Below are positions 2,743-9,772 of a stretch of DNA of 64,000 nucleotides, in pieces. The stretch's first letter is position 1. Each line of letters begins with the position of its first letter. The DNA is from Rhabdochlamydiaceae bacterium (GTDB taxonomy: Bacteria > Chlamydiota > Chlamydiia > Chlamydiales > Rhabdochlamydiaceae). Below the pieces are notes generated by a model that saw only the letters and a list, made by a program, of their open reading frames with translations, searched no databases and was not told the DNA's origin. Made by a program: the position numbers and the translations under genes. The DNA lies in assembly GCA_035478495.1 (NCBI GenBank), contig DATIJP010000064.1, positions 5,385 through 69,384 on the forward strand, in the 5' to 3' direction.

Positions 2743-3765
2743 ATGAAAGCATTAGGCAAGTTGAAAAAAGAACCGGGCATTTGGCTGTATGATGCGCCAA
2801 AACCGGTGATCGGACCAACCGAGGTGCTAATCAAAGTGAAAAGAACTGCGATTTGCGGCACCGACCTTCATATTTATAAATGGGATGAGTGGGCGCAAAA
2901 GACGATTCCTGTGCCTATTACCACAGGGCATGAATTTTTTGGGATTATCGAAGAGGTCGGCAAGGATGTAAAAGGATTGAAACCTGGCGATCGAGTGGCA
3001 GGTGAAGGACATCTCGTCTGTGGGATATGCCGTAATTGTCGTGCGGGCAGAGGCCATCTCTGCAGGAATACAAAAGGCATCGGAGTCAATACGACTGGTT
3101 GCTTTGCAGAATATATTGCCATGCCTGCCAGTAATGCTTATCTTTTGCCACCTGAAATTAGCGATATGGTCGCTTCTTTCTTAGATCCGCTTGGAAATGC
3201 AGTCCATACAACTCTCTCATTTGATTTAGTCGGAGAAGATGTTTTAGTGACAGGAGCTGGACCGATCGGCATCATGTGCGCCTTGATCGCCCACCATGTT
3301 GGTGCTCGCAAGGTCGTCATTACGGACGTCAATGAATACAGGCTTAACTTAGCTCGCAAAATGGGATTGAAACATTGTGAAAATATCACCAAAGTCAAAC
3401 TCACCGAAGTCATGAAAAAATTGAAAATTGTCGAAGGTTTTGACATTGCCTTAGAAAATTCGGGTAGCCCTGCAGCACTTCAGCAGATTCTCGATGTGAT
3501 CAATTTTGGTGGAAAGGTCGCATTACTTGGGATTTTGCCTAAAGCAGAAATCGAGTGGAGCAAGGTGATCTTTAAGAGTTTGATCCTCAAAGGAATTTAC
3601 GGAAGAGAAATGTACGAGACCTGGTATAAAATGATTGCGCTATTGCAAAGCGGACTAGAGGTCGAAGGAATCGCCACCCATATCTTCAAAGCCGATGACT
3701 ATCAAAAGGCCTTTGATGTCATTCAAAAAGGCGAATGCGGCAAAGTTGTCTTAGACTGGGATTAG
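2743..3765 (+). CDS. tdh: L-threonine 3-dehydrogenase (Zn-dependent MDR family)
   Basis: 340 aa with the catalytic Zn motif [12 protein letters not shown], the structural Zn cysteine cluster [15 protein letters not shown] and the Rossmann motif VTGAGPIG. It starts 10 nt after kbl. Confidence 0.9.
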
Positions 3766-3770
3766 ACAAA

Positions 3771-4036
3771 TTATTTCTCCCTCTGTGTTCTGTGGTCAAT
3801 TAGCCACCGGCAAAGTCTCTTTTTTGCCGTACAGCAGGTTTGAAAGATTCTGCATCGTTAATTAAAAGATTTACCACAGAGGCATAGAGGGCACAGAGAG
3901 AAGAAGAGTTCATTTTTTTTGCGCGCGAAGCAAAAAAAATGGACTTCTATTTTTTTCGGTTCGCTCCCGAAAAAAATAAAAAAACTCCTCCGAACTCTGT
4001 TTCTCCGTGGCTCTGTGGTTAAAATTTCTTTTTTTT
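3771..4036. repeat. Family C intergenic repeat (CCACAGAG / CTCTGTGG terminal inverted repeats around an A/T-stem hairpin), composite copy C1
   Basis: A half-site TTATTTCTCCCTCTGTGTTCTGTGGT lies at 3771-3796. A full unit ACCACAGAGGCA...CACAGAGAG...TTTTTTTTGCGCGCGAAGCAAAAAAAA...CTCCGTGGCTCTGTGGTT lies at 3873-4020. It is the reverse complement of the unit at 9789-9897 plus an internal duplication. ORFs 3858..4190(-) and 3919..4134(+) are repeat artefacts. Confidence 0.8.
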
Positions 4037-4084
4037 CACACCAGGGCATCTTTGAAGATGCCCTCTTGCATGAATTGCACGAAC

Positions 4085-4426
4085 TTACATTGCTCTTGCT
4101 TGATCTGCAGAACAATTCATTTTGTATAAAATGAATGGCCCTAAGGGTGCTTTGAAAGGTGCGGCATTTTGAAAGATTCCATTGACCCAATCAACTAAAA
4201 CAAAATGCACATGTTTGATCGCACCTTCTTGATTCACAAAAGAAAGTGTAAATTTGCTCTTTTCTTCCCCTAGACGAATCAAATAAGAGAAAGCAGGCTG
4301 TCCCTCTAAGATCTGCTCTGCTTCTTGAACATTTACCTCTCCTTTCCAACCATGTCTGTTTAATTCATCATTAAGATTGAAACGAAATGCCACAACTGAA
4401 GAAGTCCCGCATCGTGCTTTCAACAT
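4085..4426 (-). CDS. Small protein consisting essentially of one eukaryotic-type SH2-like domain
   Basis: 113 aa with an ATG start and a GGGGG SD-like run 5 nt upstream. The motif string W-KGEV-x3-EAEQIL...FSYLIRLGEE...FTLSFV...IKHVHF matches the SH2 consensus W-x-G-x-I-x2-x-EAE-x-L ... FL[VI]R-x-S ... Y-x-LS[VF] ... [VI]KH[YF]-x-[IF], including the phosphotyrosine-binding Arg of the FLVRES strand. Confidence 0.6.
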   Translation of the reverse strand: MLKARCGTSSVVAFRFNLNDELNRHGWKGEVNVQEAEQILEGQPAFSYLIRLGEEKSKFTLSFVNQEGAIKHVHFVLVDWVNGIFQNAAPFKAPLGPFILYKMNCSADQARAM

Positions 4427-4514
4427 AAATACCCCCGGTTAAGGTTAAAAAAAGATTAAGAAATAAGAAAGATTACATAACCGGAATATGAATGCAAGGA
4501 TATTTAAAAAAAAA

Positions 4515-7500
4515 TCAAATATCGTGGTCGATATAGGCCCATTTGAAATCAACTCCCCCTGTGTCAAAATGGAGAGCTTGATGCAGATGTTTTTTTTGCA
4601 TGTAATGGAAAACTTCATAAAAAATAGGAACAACTGGCATCTCAGTCACGAGAATCTTTTCAGCCATTTTTAAAAGTTCAAGTCGTTTAATGGAATCTAT
4701 CTCTTGCTGGGCCTCATCAAGGAGCTTTTGAAATTCTTGATTTTCCCATTTCGCGAAATTCACTTTGTTAGTGCGATATTTGAATGCATTTAGTGTATAG
4801 ATAGCATCATTTACCCAGGATTTCCAAGCAATGCCGCCCACGTGGTAATCCCCTTGGACCATTTTATTAAATAGAGTGTGGAATTCATAATTTTCCTGTT
4901 GGCAAAAAATGCCAAGCACTTTCTCAAGCTGACTTTTAAGAAGTCTGATTATTTTTTCGCGCATCTTATCTGCAGTATAAATAAAGGAAATCACCGGAAA
5001 GTCATCTCTTGTGATGCCAAGCTCGGCAAGCGCTTCTTCAAAAAGTTTGACGGCCAGTTTTTGATCCCCGCGAATCATTGAAGCATCGTAATTTTGCGTA
5101 TGGTCAAGGGGCAAAGGACTGGCCGCAGGCAAACATTCATAAGACAAATGCTTAACCAATTCTTCTCGATTGATCGCATAAGCAAAAGCCTGTCTAATTT
5201 TAGGGTGCTGGAAGGGAAATTTTTCGGTATTGAAAATGCACCAATAGATGCCAAGGGGGCTTGCAAGAACGGTCTCTTTTGAGCCCTCTTCAAAAAATGG
5301 TTCCCATGGACGCATCGGCCTGCCAATCCAATCAATTTCATCTTTTTTAAACATCTCATTGGCAATGATTGCATTGCTTTTTGAAATGAGAATACGTTCC
5401 AAAGATACAGCTTGCTTGTCCCAATAACAATGATTTTTGACAAATTCCATTCCTGTATTTGGATTAAAAGATTTCAGTTTGAATGGCCCATTGCAGACAT
5501 AAACATCCTCTTGTCCCTGCGACCAATTGGGATGAATTTTATCAATCAAATGATTGACAGGCGCATACAAAGGATAGGCCGTAAGCTCTAAGAACTCAGG
5601 AGTAGGATGCTCAAGCTGGATCACCAAAGTTGTGTCATCAATGGCGCGCACCCCAACATCATCTATAGGTAAATTCCCCTCTTTTGCTGCTTTTGCATTT
5701 TTAATGGGATAGAAAAAGTAAGCAAATGGCGTTGAAAATTTAGGAGAGAGGACTTTTTTCCAAGCATACTCAAAATCATAAGCAATCACACGGGTCTCAT
5801 TGGACCAATAACATTCGCGCAATTTAAAGATATACTGCTTAAAATCCTTAGAGATTTCCACAGACTTTGCAATAGAAAGCATCGGCTTGCTTCCATGCCC
5901 GATGCGTGTGAGACCATCAAAGAGCATTTTTAAAATAGGACCTGAAAGCATATCGCCGCTAAAACGCGGATCAAGGATACGCGGAAGATCAAGAAAACTG
6001 AGTTTGAGAACTTGTTGATTTTTAACTTTTTTGGTCCACTCCTTGAGTTGTCTTAAAATTGCTTCTGCGAAGAGTTCCTGTTTGGCCTCCTCTGAAGTTT
6101 CGTAAATGTAACCTAGAATTAATGATCCTTGGAAATTCACCTGAGTTTTGATGAGAGACTTTGAAAAATTATCAAAACGATACACACCGTCCGCCAAAGC
6201 TTCCTTGATCGATGGCTCTCTTGCGCGCACCACAACATAGGTAATATTTTTATCTTTCTCTATTTTCCAAAAACAACTTTCCTTCTTTGGCATTTCGACT
6301 TCTATCGCTTCTAAATAAAGATAAAAAAGTTTCTGGATAGAAGAAAGAGGCAAGGTGGCCTGCATTTCAATCGGGTTTAAAGAGAAAAAGAAGTTTTCCA
6401 AAAGCTCATGATTTCTCTCTGCGACCTCTTTAAAAATATCCTTAAATTGAGAAAAGAGCTCCCCCTGCTTTAAGATCATTCCACCATTGAAGTCGCGGAT
6501 ATCGCCTAAAACCTCATGAAGAATTTGCACGACCTTCTGTCTTGCTAAATAAAAATTTACTGACGAATCAGCCCGCAAAATACCGCGATCTTTAGGAATG
6601 ACAAGATGAAATACATTGGCCTCTTTAGGTGTTCTTTTCCGCAAATAACCTACCGTTTGCACGCGCTCAGGAATATATTTGACTGGCGTGCTTGATCTTT
6701 GAAAACATTTTTCTAAAGGCTGATCTGTCCTTTTAAGCAATCTGACGAGCACTAGTGTAAAGTACATGTCAGTGGGCGTCTGCTTTTCTAGTGAAATCAT
6801 CACTTGAGGAAAGTCGGAGAGATATTTTAATTCTTGGTTGAGAAGAAGAATGTTTTTCATGATCTCTTCTTCATTTCGAATCATAAAAACAGAGGGAATG
6901 AGCTTTTCAATCCGTTTTTTTAATTCATCTTCTAATTCAAGTTTAAGAGTGCGGATCTCACTTTGCGAAAAACCCATTCCATCTTTTTTTTCTAATTCTA
7001 CATAGAGCAACCGAACGGGGTCTTTATATCCTTGATAGGCAAAAAAGGAATCTTTCACGATATGAACACTATCGATAAATTTTAACATGGCAGACAGAAT
7101 ATGCGTTTCTTCAAAGGATTCATATTTGTCAAACAGTGTGAGCCCGATGGCGAGGCCTAAAACAGGCTTTGAACCAAATGGGAATCGAAGCTGAGTGCGG
7201 ATCAAGCGGACTTCCAGATATCTTTTTTCTGGGAATAAACTAATTTCCCGTGAGAGTTTTTTATGCATCAAGTGATGGGATGCGACGAGCCTTGTGACAT
7301 GGCGATGAGGTCTGAAATCACGAAAGTCCTTGTTGGACAAGGCTAAAAATCTGCCCATTTCAGTGAAAATTTCTTTGCTAAAGTCATTAGGCCTTTTATT
7401 GATCAGTCGGATCAATTCTTGATGGATGCAAGTCCCTTTTTGGTCATAAGAAAGCGCTTTGGTGTCCAAAAGATATTCAGCATATTTTGAAGAAGTGATA

Positions 7501-8039
7501 GCAAGCGCCAATTCTTTCGAAAGGATAGGAAGATTATTTTGAATGGCTCCAAGATCTCTACCATCTTCAATGAGGATTTTTAATTCAGAAATAAAGAAAA
7601 GCTCGCAGCCGATTTCTCGAAGATGGCAATACATGTTCTGAAATGAGAGAATCTGAATTTCTCTTTCAGGGATCAGCCATTTTTTGATCACATCAAGCAA
7701 AATATTTTCAGTCTTGACATCTTTTGAAGGCTTGCAAAATAAATAAATCGACAAAGTATCAGGGGTGGCATCGATCTCATTCCACTGAATGAGGGGCAGG
7801 CTTCTATTTAACCACTCCTGCATTTCGCTCTTTTCTTTGAGCAGAAACTCTTTGCAGAGCATCTTGGCAAGAATTTTTTTCATCTGCAAGAGATGTTCAA
7901 CGAGTGCTCTCGATTTAGTCGAATGGGGAAGATAGGGCTGAATATCAAAACAAAAAAAGTGCGCATCCTCTTCGTTTTTTAAAGAAGGCTGCTCCACCTC
8001 CAAAATGGGCTTAGAGTCCAGTAGATCCAACACCTGCAC
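4515..8039 (-). CDS. Large leaderless protein: unknown ~680-aa N-terminal region fused to a family-5 solute-binding (OppA/DppA-like) domain
   Basis: 1174-aa ORF. The codon at 8039 is GTG, so the exact start is uncertain. The C-terminal ~490 aa align by eye with the neighbouring OppA: FDGLTRIGHGSKP vs FEGLMCTGPDGKI; IAYDFEYAWKKVL vs TAFDFEYTWKTLL; YWD; FAYAINREEL vs FTYAIDRQAI; the end of the domain is also conserved. I see no signal peptide or lipobox at the N-terminus. Confidence 0.7.
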   Translation of the reverse strand: MQVLDLLDSKPILEVEQPSLKNEEDAHFFCFDIQPYLPHSTKSRALVEHLLQMKKILAKMLCKEFLLKEKSEMQEWLNRSLPLIQWNEIDATPDTLSIYLFCKPSKDVKTENILLDVIKKWLIPEREIQILSFQNMYCHLREIGCELFFISELKILIEDGRDLGAIQNNLPILSKELALAITSSKYAEYLLDTKALSYDQKGTCIHQELIRLINKRPNDFSKEIFTEMGRFLALSNKDFRDFRPHRHVTRLVASHHLMHKKLSREISLFPEKRYLEVRLIRTQLRFPFGSKPVLGLAIGLTLFDKYESFEETHILSAMLKFIDSVHIVKDSFFAYQGYKDPVRLLYVELEKKDGMGFSQSEIRTLKLELEDELKKRIEKLIPSVFMIRNEEEIMKNILLLNQELKYLSDFPQVMISLEKQTPTDMYFTLVLVRLLKRTDQPLEKCFQRSSTPVKYIPERVQTVGYLRKRTPKEANVFHLVIPKDRGILRADSSVNFYLARQKVVQILHEVLGDIRDFNGGMILKQGELFSQFKDIFKEVAERNHELLENFFFSLNPIEMQATLPLSSIQKLFYLYLEAIEVEMPKKESCFWKIEKDKNITYVVVRAREPSIKEALADGVYRFDNFSKSLIKTQVNFQGSLILGYIYETSEEAKQELFAEAILRQLKEWTKKVKNQQVLKLSFLDLPRILDPRFSGDMLSGPILKMLFDGLTRIGHGSKPMLSIAKSVEISKDFKQYIFKLRECYWSNETRVIAYDFEYAWKKVLSPKFSTPFAYFFYPIKNAKAAKEGNLPIDDVGVRAIDDTTLVIQLEHPTPEFLELTAYPLYAPVNHLIDKIHPNWSQGQEDVYVCNGPFKLKSFNPNTGMEFVKNHCYWDKQAVSLERILISKSNAIIANEMFKKDEIDWIGRPMRPWEPFFEEGSKETVLASPLGIYWCIFNTEKFPFQHPKIRQAFAYAINREELVKHLSYECLPAASPLPLDHTQNYDASMIRGDQKLAVKLFEEALAELGITRDDFPVISFIYTADKMREKIIRLLKSQLEKVLGIFCQQENYEFHTLFNKMVQGDYHVGGIAWKSWVNDAIYTLNAFKYRTNKVNFAKWENQEFQKLLDEAQQEIDSIKRLELLKMAEKILVTEMPVVPIFYEVFHYMQKKHLHQALHFDTGGVDFKWAYIDHDI

Positions 8040-8155: not shown

Positions 8156-9772
8156 ATGATTGCACTGCGTTTATTTTTTTGTTGGTCCATCATGCTGATT
8201 TGTGCCGGATGTCAGGAATCTACTCCTTCCTCTTCTCATATACAATCCAAAATGCTCAGCCTTAGTTTGCCTGGCGATTTGGACGCATTTGATCCGCGCT
8301 ATGTGATTTCTTCTCCCTCAATATTGGCTATTAAAATGGTTTTTGAAGGCCTAATGTGTACTGGCCCCGATGGAAAAATCACTCCTGCAATTGCTGAGAG
8401 CCTTGAAATTTCAGAAGATCAAAAATTCTATACTTTTCATTTGCGTCCTTGCCAATGGTCGAATGGGGATGAGATCACAGCTTTTGATTTTGAATATACA
8501 TGGAAAACACTTCTCGACCCAAACCTAAACACAAAAGGAAAACATAACTTTTACGCCATTAAAAACGCTGAAGCTATTGTTCACGGGAAATTGCCTTTGA
8601 GCGCATTGGGAGTGAAAGTGATCGATCCTAAAACACTTGTCGTTGAATTGGAACACCCTGCCCCTTATTTTTTGGAAATTGTGGCCAGCTCTTCTTTTTT
8701 TCCTGTCAATTCCCGCATCGATCGAGAGTCGCCAGATTGGGCCAAAAATGCCGGAGAACAATTTGTTTGCAATGGACCCTTTCTTCTTTCGAAACATAAG
8801 CAAGAAGATGAAATGATCTTCATCAAAAATCCCGACTATTGGGATGCCGAGCATGTCCAGTTGCCAGGCATTAAAATTTGTATTATTAAAGATGCCACTA
8901 CGATGCTTAGCATGTTTGAGAAAAATGAATTAGATTGGGCAGGAAAACCACTTTCGCGCCTCCCCTTAGACGCAATTCCCCATTTAAGAGAAAAAGGGGA
9001 AATTAACCAATTTCCTTGTGCAGGTCTTGAGTGGTACGTTTTTAATGTGCATGCTTTTCCATTTAATAATAAAAAAATGCGACAAGCTTTTACTTATGCC
9101 ATCGATCGCCAGGCAATTGCAGACCATGTTCTCAAGGAAGGGGAGACACCTGCGCTTGGAATTCTTCCCCCAAGTCTTGCCACGCAAACTCAACCTTTTT
9201 TTACCGATAATAATTTAACCTTGGCCCGAAAATTATTTGATGAAGCATTAGAAGAATTGGGCCTCGAAAAAAAAGACCTTCCAGTCATCAAATTTAATTT
9301 TTCCAATTCACGCCTCATCAGTCAAAAAGTCACAGAAGCTTTGCAGCAACAATGGAAAGAGGCATTTGGCATCCTGGTAAAATTGGATCAGCGAGAAGCA
9401 AAAGTGCATTTTGATACACTGGCAAAAGGTGACTTCCAAATTGGTGGAGCGGGTTGGGTTTCTTGGTTGCGTGATCCCATCTATATCATGCAAACCTTTC
9501 GATTTGCTTCCGATAGCGTGAATTTTCCTAAGTGGGAAGATCCCGAATATCAAAGGCTGCTTGATGCAACGGACCAAGAGTTAGATCCTATCAAAAGAAA
9601 GCAGTTCTTCAATGAAGCCGAAAAAATCTTAATGGATGAATTCCCAGTTGCACCCCTTTATTACATGACAATGGCCTATGCAGTCAACAAACAGCTGAAA
9701 AATGTCTATTTATCTGAATTATTCGAAGTTGATTTCAGATGGGCCTACTTCGAAGAAGAAAGCCAGAATTAA
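8156..9772 (+). CDS. oppA: Oligopeptide-binding lipoprotein, ABC substrate-binding protein family 5
   Basis: 538 aa. Hydrophobic leader ends in a lipobox-like LICAGC. SBP_bac_5 pattern is present throughout (DPRYV, FEGLM, WSNGDEITAFDFEYTW, NPDYWD). Divergent from the 1174-aa fusion gene. Confidence 0.85.
   Translation: MIALRLFFCWSIMLICAGCQESTPSSSHIQSKMLSLSLPGDLDAFDPRYVISSPSILAIKMVFEGLMCTGPDGKITPAIAESLEISEDQKFYTFHLRPCQWSNGDEITAFDFEYTWKTLLDPNLNTKGKHNFYAIKNAEAIVHGKLPLSALGVKVIDPKTLVVELEHPAPYFLEIVASSSFFPVNSRIDRESPDWAKNAGEQFVCNGPFLLSKHKQEDEMIFIKNPDYWDAEHVQLPGIKICIIKDATTMLSMFEKNELDWAGKPLSRLPLDAIPHLREKGEINQFPCAGLEWYVFNVHAFPFNNKKMRQAFTYAIDRQAIADHVLKEGETPALGILPPSLATQTQPFFTDNNLTLARKLFDEALEELGLEKKDLPVIKFNFSNSRLISQKVTEALQQQWKEAFGILVKLDQREAKVHFDTLAKGDFQIGGAGWVSWLRDPIYIMQTFRFASDSVNFPKWEDPEYQRLLDATDQELDPIKRKQFFNEAEKILMDEFPVAPLYYMTMAYAVNKQLKNVYLSELFEVDFRWAYFEEESQN

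Follow-up and report, generated by a model that had tools for sequence, protein, structure and literature searches.

Does a bacterial gene whose product is almost entirely an SH2 domain serve to deceive a eukaryotic host, or does it serve the bacterium that carries it? The question is raised by a short gene on a 64,000-nucleotide stretch of an uncultured Rhabdochlamydiaceae bacterium (GenBank assembly GCA_035478495.1, contig DATIJP010000064.1, positions 5,385 to 69,384; the whole stretch is called the window here), whose product an earlier reading of the letters (the sequence-only reading) had described as a stand-alone SH2-like protein and a candidate mimic or decoy of host phosphotyrosine (pTyr) signalling. 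We find that the gene encodes a real single-domain protein, homologous to SH2 domains and sharing their fold, that it belongs to a chlamydial family of SH2-only proteins, and that genes of this family lie in a conserved neighbourhood beside a gene for a large OppA-like fusion protein and, in most clades, one for a MATE-family transporter; the family and its neighbourhood are the main new result. We give a probability of about one half to the reading that the SH2-like protein works as the small member of a conserved module that includes the fusion protein and, usually, the MATE transporter, and it is probably not a free-standing host decoy.

The SH2-like protein and its family

The gene and the parts of its product on which the argument rests are as follows.

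4085..4426, minus strand: gene for the SH2-only protein, with an ATG start, 113 codons and the stop at 4085-4087 (from the list of open reading frames, ORFs)
4376..4426, minus strand: N-terminal 17 residues, poorly conserved and of low model confidence, followed by a short helix (residues 18-24)
4088..4354, minus strand: SH2 core, residues 25-113 (from the model, Foldseek and the family profile)
4274..4276, minus strand: codon of Arg51, the betaB5 arginine of the Y-L-I-R ('FLVR') motif and the key SH2 phosphate ligand
4211..4213, minus strand: codon of His72, the betaD4 histidine of the pTyr pocket

The 113-amino-acid (aa) ORF, its ATG and the residues quoted from it in the sequence-only reading were borne out exactly, with the correction that the gene lies on the minus strand. 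Its product (12.7 kDa, isoelectric point 7.8) is identical to the GenBank protein HSX04199.1, so that the SH2 annotation of the window protein itself is already known: the entry is titled 'MAG TPA: SH2 domain-containing protein [Rhabdochlamydiaceae bacterium]', and the domain had therefore been flagged by automated annotation. Such annotation is uneven across the family, since the members MBP7074930.1 and MBA3958013.1 are each a 'hypothetical protein' in GenBank. Three close homologues with 45-62% identity have the same start, which establishes the ORF as a real gene, and both the start and the full length are kept in the orthologues of 60-62% identity.

Taken singly, the protein gave little sign of its domain. 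A Pfam scan returned no SH2 match, even at E ≤ 10, an NCBIfam scan returned no match, and a single-sequence phmmer search against the PDB returned 6 weak matches, all of them SH2 domains (best HSH2D, E = 0.0031). The Pfam search, which the sequence-only reading had proposed as a check, thus failed for the single sequence and succeeded for the family: of the 104 short (SH2-only) family proteins in the alignment that we call A2, which was the source of both the family profile and the final AlphaFold2 model, 36 individually reached the Pfam SH2 family (PF00017), the best at E = 7e-7. Searched against the PDB, the A2 profile gave 75 matches at E ≤ 0.001, and all 60 of those listed were SH2-containing proteins; the best was SHP2 (E = 3.7e-7), in an alignment running from before alphaA to the end of alphaB (profile positions 23-111).

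The predicted fold agrees. AlphaFold2 with A2 produced a model of canonical SH2 topology (pLDDT 87.3, pTM 0.75), superseding an earlier run with 4 sequences (pLDDT 51.5), and the predicted structure has the central beta-sheet flanked by two helices that was expected of it. In a Foldseek search of the PDB all 50 of the 50 matches listed were SH2 domains (probability 1.00, TM-score 0.47-0.62), including those of Vav2, RasGAP (N-SH2), SOCS2, Src, p85 and PLCgamma1, and in a fold search of a viral library ranks 2-13 were SH2 or SH2-like proteins, the leading named ones being the SH2 proteins of ChoanoV1, v-Crk and MGF100 of African swine fever virus (ASFV). The model places alphaA at residues 33-40, betaB at 47-52, betaC at 59-64, betaD at 70-79, short strands at 84-86 and 92-94, and alphaB at 95-103; the BG region that follows is very short and closes the protein, which makes a canonical +3 specificity pocket unlikely, to judge from the model. 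Confidence is lowest near the N-terminus (pLDDT < 50 at residues 1-3 and 8-10), and the family has no conserved columns before residue 18. The betaA to betaD motifs named in the sequence-only reading, with the betaB arginine, were upheld by HMMER alignments to solved SH2 domains, in which the corresponding elements are W27, E35-A-E37..L40 (alphaA), Y48-L-I-R51 (betaB), F59-T-L-S-F63 (betaC) and I70-K-H72 (betaD). Because the profile, individual Pfam, fold and viral matches all lead to SH2, the assignment is solid.

One might still suppose that the ORF, or its likeness to SH2 motifs, is a product of chance, and the single sequence, with no Pfam match and a best PDB E of only 0.0031, would allow it. 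Chance is refuted by several observations taken together: orthologues share the start, the family runs to more than 100 clusters, every profile and fold match listed is SH2, and the synteny is conserved; we rate its probability as practically nil.

A four-sequence profile, run exhaustively with HMMER, gathered 154 cluster representatives at E ≤ 1e-3, and ~105 of them share one layout at a length of 83-157 aa. The family of SH2-only proteins, 105-135 aa long, comprises ~100 clusters at 50% identity. Its named sources are exclusively metagenome-assembled genomes (MAGs) of Chlamydiae (Rhabdochlamydiaceae and Parachlamydiaceae). This taxonomy is based on a handful of MAG names together with the Chlamydiae-restricted partner gene, as look-ups of clusters of the family and of the fusion protein gave generic names: Rhabdochlamydiaceae, Parachlamydiaceae, Simkaniaceae, Chlamydiae/Chlamydiota/Chlamydiia and one 'Verrucomicrobia' MAG. 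The search also returned long proteins, the best of which are one of 903 aa with SH2 domains and a U-box, an architecture that recalls Legionella LUSH, and one of 792 aa with six SH2 domains (P0014 and P0018); several other long matches pair a Cbl-type EF-hand with SH2.

The gene neighbourhood and its partners

The neighbour that matters most to the argument is the gene immediately upstream.

4515..8039, minus strand: OppA-like fusion gene, 1174 aa as listed and 1172 aa in NCBI (from the ORF list, Pfam and NCBIfam)

The SH2-like gene begins 88 bp past the stop of this 1174-aa ORF, in agreement with the sequence-only reading, which had placed it just downstream of the fusion gene. The description 'stand-alone' accordingly holds for the domain architecture and does not hold for the genomics: across Chlamydiae the gene is half of a pair, and usually a member of a trio.

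In nine of ten loci that we looked up, an intact fusion gene (OppA-like, ~1000-1170 aa) lies directly upstream of the SH2-like gene. The tenth (L005) has the MATE gene downstream and, upstream, only a small called gene that resembles a fragment of the fusion C-terminus. Distant members of the family, with 20-30% identity to the window protein, have their genes right after a gene for a 986-1016-aa SBP_bac_5 protein and right before one for a MATE-family transporter, with gaps down to 1 bp or with stop and start codons overlapping; overlap or near-contact is seen in many loci. At 38% identity over 977 aa, the ~1000-aa protein encoded upstream of these distant members is the orthologue of the 1174-aa window ORF. 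Beyond these genes, the flanks of the loci looked up are all unrelated to one another. The association also holds from the other side, since five of five fusion genes picked blind to SH2, two of them on contigs of ~2.0 Mb and one in a Simkaniaceae MAG, have a confirmed member of the SH2-like family immediately downstream.

A metagenome scan widened the sample. It used a degenerate pattern, verified on the window first, that samples ~20% of the family's diversity, and it returned 60 loci, of which 39 carry 42 family ORFs and the other 21 are chance matches. Thirty-eight of the 42 metagenomic copies lie ≤ 1.6 kb from a fusion gene, a MATE gene or both, and the four exceptions have < 360 bp of sequence upstream. 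At least four arrangements occur, among them fusion, SH2-like and MATE genes in that order; the fusion and SH2-like genes alone; divergent fusion and SH2-like genes (8 loci); and SH2-like, MATE and fusion genes in that order. Further ones are SH2-like then MATE with a convergent fusion gene, fusion then SH2-like, MATE and a second SH2-like gene, fusion then two SH2-like genes, and two tandem pairs of SH2-like and MATE genes. Multiple copies were seen in particular loci: three tandem SH2-like paralogues in a Parachlamydiaceae MAG (L004, 4556-5900), two in another locus (L042, 11116-12153), a MATE gene with a copy on either side in a third (L025, 2572-4689), and the two tandem SH2-MATE pairs in a fourth (L071, 261-5398), which has no fusion gene within 4-7 kb and whose MATE ORFs are each split in two, possibly as frameshifts or pseudogenes.

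The partners also diverge together. Within one clade the identities are 47-59% for the fusion protein, 42-59% for the SH2-like protein and 50-57% for the MATE protein, and the loci are grouped alike by SH2 similarities and by fusion similarities. The closest relative of the window locus (L009) has the same fusion-SH2 pair without a MATE gene, which is present in most other clades; in this comparison the fusion proteins are 87% identical and the SH2-like proteins only 62%.

These observations bear directly on the proposal that the SH2-like protein is an independent effector, secreted by the type III system, that reads or sequesters host pTyr sites as a decoy or mimic, in the manner of the Legionella SH2 effectors or of the SH2-only adaptor SAP. 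The organism is an obligate intracellular chlamydia of the Rhabdochlamydiaceae, and the sequence-only reading had spoken of an intracellular lifestyle. The variable, disordered N-terminal 17 residues are compatible with a type III secretion signal, though not specific for one, and some genomes carry 2-3 tandem paralogues. Translocated Legionella SH2 proteins offer a precedent (PMC6208348), and candidate hosts such as Acanthamoeba have a full pTyr circuitry, with 22 protein tyrosine kinases, 12 protein tyrosine phosphatases and 48 SH2 proteins (PMC4053784). The neighbourhood tells otherwise: the gene is bound by a tight, rearrangement-resistant linkage, frequently with translational coupling, to those of a MATE inner-membrane transporter and a large soluble bacterial protein, and within clades its product evolves at the rate of its neighbours, unlike a fast-evolving effector. 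The conserved module thus argues against an independent host decoy, which we regard as possible and rather doubtful.

As to the partners themselves, the C-terminus of the fusion protein is an OppA-like SBP_bac_5 domain (residues 721-1092 by Pfam and NCBIfam), and its highly conserved, Chlamydiae-specific N-terminal region of ~675-680 aa gave no homology in the PDB or Pfam. Conserved stretches of this region include IPSVFMIRNEEE, RDYNGGMILKQ and LENFFF..PIE.QAT, and the protein contains conserved internal tyrosines, for example in R-D-Y-N-G-G at about residue 515. No signal peptide or transmembrane segment was found in it (maximum hydropathy 1.19). Homologues of the N-terminal region form > 168 clusters of proteins of ~1140-1190 aa with 40-87% identity, whose named sources are Rhabdochlamydiaceae, Simkaniaceae, Chlamydiae/Chlamydiales/Chlamydiota and one 'Verrucomicrobia' MAG. 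The NCBI name, 'peptide ABC transporter substrate-binding protein', probably understates the fusion protein. In other clades a MATE-family transporter, with a score below the NCBIfam cut-off, is the partner encoded downstream. None of the SH2-like, fusion and MATE proteins matched a defence model in PADLOC.

The remaining features of the locus are these.

4432..4436, minus strand: Shine-Dalgarno-like GGGGG, 6-10 nucleotides 5' of the SH2-like ATG (read from the sequence)
3982-3944 and 3941-3911, minus strand: two terminator-like hairpins ~100 nucleotides 3' of the SH2-like gene (consensus scan only)
8156..9772, plus strand: ordinary OppA-like SBP_bac_5 gene, divergent from the fusion gene

The first of these is the G-run that had been noted as resembling a Shine-Dalgarno sequence. 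The consensus scan found 3 terminator-like sites against 0.8 expected in shuffles, and the hairpins at 3911..3982 separate the SH2-like gene from the convergent tdh (2743..3765, plus strand); kbl is also convergent. Two further ORFs, of 110 aa (3858..4190, minus strand) and 71 aa (3919..4134, plus strand), overlap the 3' end of the SH2-like gene and the A/T-rich terminator region, and look spurious from their low-complexity translations and TTG start. The product of 8156..9772 has an N-terminus that, as read from its residues, resembles a lipoprotein signal. The divergent pairing of an OppA-like SBP_bac_5 gene with the fusion gene recurs in other loci (L019, L020, L081 and L083), with genes for MurJ, an AP_endonuc_2 protein, a class II tRNA synthetase and a signal peptidase nearby, and the module thus adjoins cell-envelope and peptide-uptake genes in several lineages. 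In three Rhabdochlamydiaceae loci (L001-L003; contig JACCDZ010838821.1 of GCA_013572825.1 and others) it lies between dnaA and a bactofilin gene, beside the mraZ-rsmH-ftsI cluster, which is a core chromosomal neighbourhood and not an island.

The phosphate pocket and what it may bind

HMMER aligned Arg51 with the betaB5 arginine of HSH2D, the SHP2 N-SH2 domain and the Drk/Grb2 SH2 domain, and His72 with the betaD4 histidine of Drk/Grb2 and SHP2. The arginine is present in 72 of 103 family representatives and the histidine in 87 of 104. Among the module-linked members, by which we mean the 54 proteins whose genes could be placed beside partner genes, the counts are 52 and 53 respectively, which suggests that selection acts on the pocket in the lineage that includes the window gene.

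From this pocket and the neighbourhood we infer how the module might work. The SH2-like pocket (Arg51 at betaB5, His72 at betaD4) would dock a short phosphorylated or otherwise anionic peptide motif, and this docking would couple or regulate the soluble fusion protein and, where it is present, the MATE transporter, presumably through physical contact. In the clade of the window the MATE gene has left the locus, and the SH2-like protein has diverged faster than its fusion partner. We lean towards the bacterial cytoplasm as the compartment because of the coupling with the MATE inner-membrane transporter; this coupling, together with an evolutionary rate like that of the neighbouring genes, speaks for a role within the bacterium. 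A more specific form of the proposal, which we put forward tentatively, is that the SH2 domain was domesticated for a cell-autonomous job, as a cytoplasmic reader or adaptor subunit in an OppA-like/MATE module for export or handling that is ancient and Chlamydiae-wide, where it would recognise a phosphorylated or anionic bacterial ligand instead of host pTyr.

Several points weigh against the partnership in a bacterial module. To our knowledge, tyrosine phosphorylation is not established inside Chlamydiae and no chlamydial tyrosine kinases are known, and the SH2 ligands characterised are all products of eukaryotic kinases, a point in favour of a host target. The conservation of the neighbourhood is indirect support for a functional link of the three proteins; the fusion and MATE proteins showed neither a conserved tail with Tyr nor any other obvious motif for a ligand, the long family matches contained no Rosetta-stone fusion of SH2 to a partner, and in the 64-kb window tblastn found no MATE homologue, leaving the fusion-SH2 pair. 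The pocket itself has no second basic residue. The characterised pTyr-binding classes described in PMC6208348 are two, and each relies on such a residue: betaB5 is joined by alphaA2 in one (the Src class) and by betaD6 in the other (the SAP/LeSH class). In the window protein alphaA2 is the non-basic Val33, a position held in the family by G, L, E or A and never by Arg or Lys, and betaD6 is His74, in the family mostly Pro or Asn; pTyr binding is therefore plausible, not assured, and to judge from these residues the pocket may not bind pTyr at all. The betaB5 arginine is, moreover, missing in 32 of 104 representatives.

The same positions are the starting point for another view, that the SH2 fold is a phospho-independent protein-protein interaction surface or a chaperone-like scaffold for the fusion protein, its pocket residues serving folding or some other ligand. 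The non-basic alphaA2 and betaD6 fit this view, as do a small protein encoded beside a large partner, the inactive SH2 homologues known in Legionella (PMC6208348), and the ~30% of representatives that have no betaB5 arginine yet retain W27, N87 and C105. In the family alignment W27, L40, N87 and C105 are better conserved than that arginine. What speaks against the view is the near-invariance of Arg51 and His72 in the module-linked members, which implies selection on the pocket, a fold that is SH2 and not that of a type III chaperone, and an isoelectric point (7.8; family median 5.9) that is not strongly acidic as is typical of type III secretion chaperones. We consider such a scaffold unlikely. 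On the same grounds of fold and isoelectric point, a type III secretion class I chaperone of the CesT/SycE type, which also would be a protein of ~13 kDa encoded beside a large protein that has no signal peptide, often with translational coupling, is rejected.

About 11 of the representatives that have no betaB5 arginine form a subgroup (P0022, P0042, P0052, P0053, P0075, P0079, P0101, P0102, P0109, P0113 and P0146), the rest being scattered. Its members have Ser, Thr or Leu at betaB5, an N-terminus rich in Lys/Arg and the motif C..CS...C at the C-terminus; they keep W27 and, in most cases, N87 and C105 as well. The subgroup may represent a paralogous lineage without phosphate binding. At the C-terminus most family members end in M-H-C-x4-C-x-P-L (window residues 103-113), with Cys105 in 91 of 101, the second Cys in 58 of 99 and the Pro in 74 of 100. 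The second Cys is missing from the window protein, which has N104-C105. The C-terminal Cys residues could form a metal site or a disulfide.

The pocket also bears on the host decoy, to which it is double-edged. A true SH2 fold that keeps the betaB5 Arg and the betaD4 His speaks for such an effector, and the absence of a second basic phosphate ligand at alphaA2 or betaD6 counts against it. A further point against it is that two SH2 candidates from uncultivated non-Legionellales bacteria, K2BDF1 and K2EE31, bound no pTyr peptides (Kaneko et al., PMC6208348). The preferred reading remains the partnership with the fusion protein and usually the MATE transporter. Beside it we keep alive a host-directed role for the SH2-like protein, either independent or co-delivered with the fusion protein, because we know of no chlamydial tyrosine kinases and because of the precedent in Legionella.

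Relatives, origin and meaning

The resemblance to eukaryotic SH2 domains (PF00017) extends to the fold, the order of elements, the FLVR-type motif with its betaB5 Arg, the betaD4 His, the early Trp and the Leu of alphaA, and the best structural and sequence matches are Vav2, the p120RasGAP N-SH2 domain, SOCS2/SOCS4, the SHP2 N-SH2 domain, HSH2D, Src and the PLCgamma1 C-SH2 domain. In contrast to these, the chlamydial protein is bacterial and domain-only, its gene is embedded in a bacterial module, it is one residue shorter between the N-terminal Trp and Gly, it has the very short BG region and no basic residue at alphaA2 or betaD6, and its family has its own near-invariant Asn87 and Cys105, often with the second Cys.

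SAP/SH2D1A is an SH2-only adaptor and, like the SH2 proteins of ChoanoV1 and MGF100 of ASFV, consists of a single SH2 domain that makes up nearly the whole protein (~110-130 aa), as in the chlamydial family. Sequence identity is < 20%, and for the chlamydial family host targeting is no more than a possibility. SAP binds phosphate through betaB5 and betaD6 (PMC6208348).

The statement in the sequence-only reading that bacterial SH2 domains are mainly those of Legionella effectors agrees with Kaneko et al. (2018), the one experimental study of bacterial SH2 domains that came to light, which identified them confidently only in Legionellales (PMC6208348). The SH2 effectors of Legionella and other Legionellales (LeSH, LUSH, RavO, DoSH; PMC6208348) are likewise bacterial, come from an amoeba-associated intracellular bacterium and are presumably derived from eukaryotes, and both families include members without key pocket residues. 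They belong to a different phylum, are often multidomain (with a U-box or protease) and are scattered through the genome, whereas the chlamydial family is domain-only and locked in its module. Legionella SH2 domains have a pair of arginines at betaB5 and betaD6 and a 'roof' in the EF region (PMC6208348), while the chlamydial family has neither the betaD6 Arg (His74 in the window protein, Pro in most members) nor another basic partner. Legionella proteins are absent from the 60 listed PDB sequence matches and from the 50 listed fold matches, all of which are eukaryotic SH2 domains; judged on the matches listed, the family is nearer in sequence and fold to eukaryotic than to Legionella SH2 domains. 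The most likely origin is a single capture from a eukaryotic host by an early chlamydial ancestor, followed by vertical inheritance.

Full-text searches of the library covered turned up no paper about SH2 domains of chlamydial origin; what they matched concerned host SH2 proteins that bind TarP or TepP. Practical value is modest for now. With more than 100 clusters in Chlamydiae, the family would bring SH2 'reader' domains into a second major group of intracellular bacteria, and the fixed partnership with the fusion protein and the MATE transporter gives a testable handle on the use of SH2 in a bacterium's own physiology and on the role of the fusion protein; it bears too on how and when SH2 moved between eukaryotes and endosymbionts. 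If the SH2-like protein is indeed a cell-autonomous reader within the bacterium, it would be the first case of an SH2 domain that functions inside a prokaryote, and Chlamydiae would be a deep, vertically inherited reservoir of SH2, with consequences for when and where SH2 readers spread between eukaryotes and endosymbionts.

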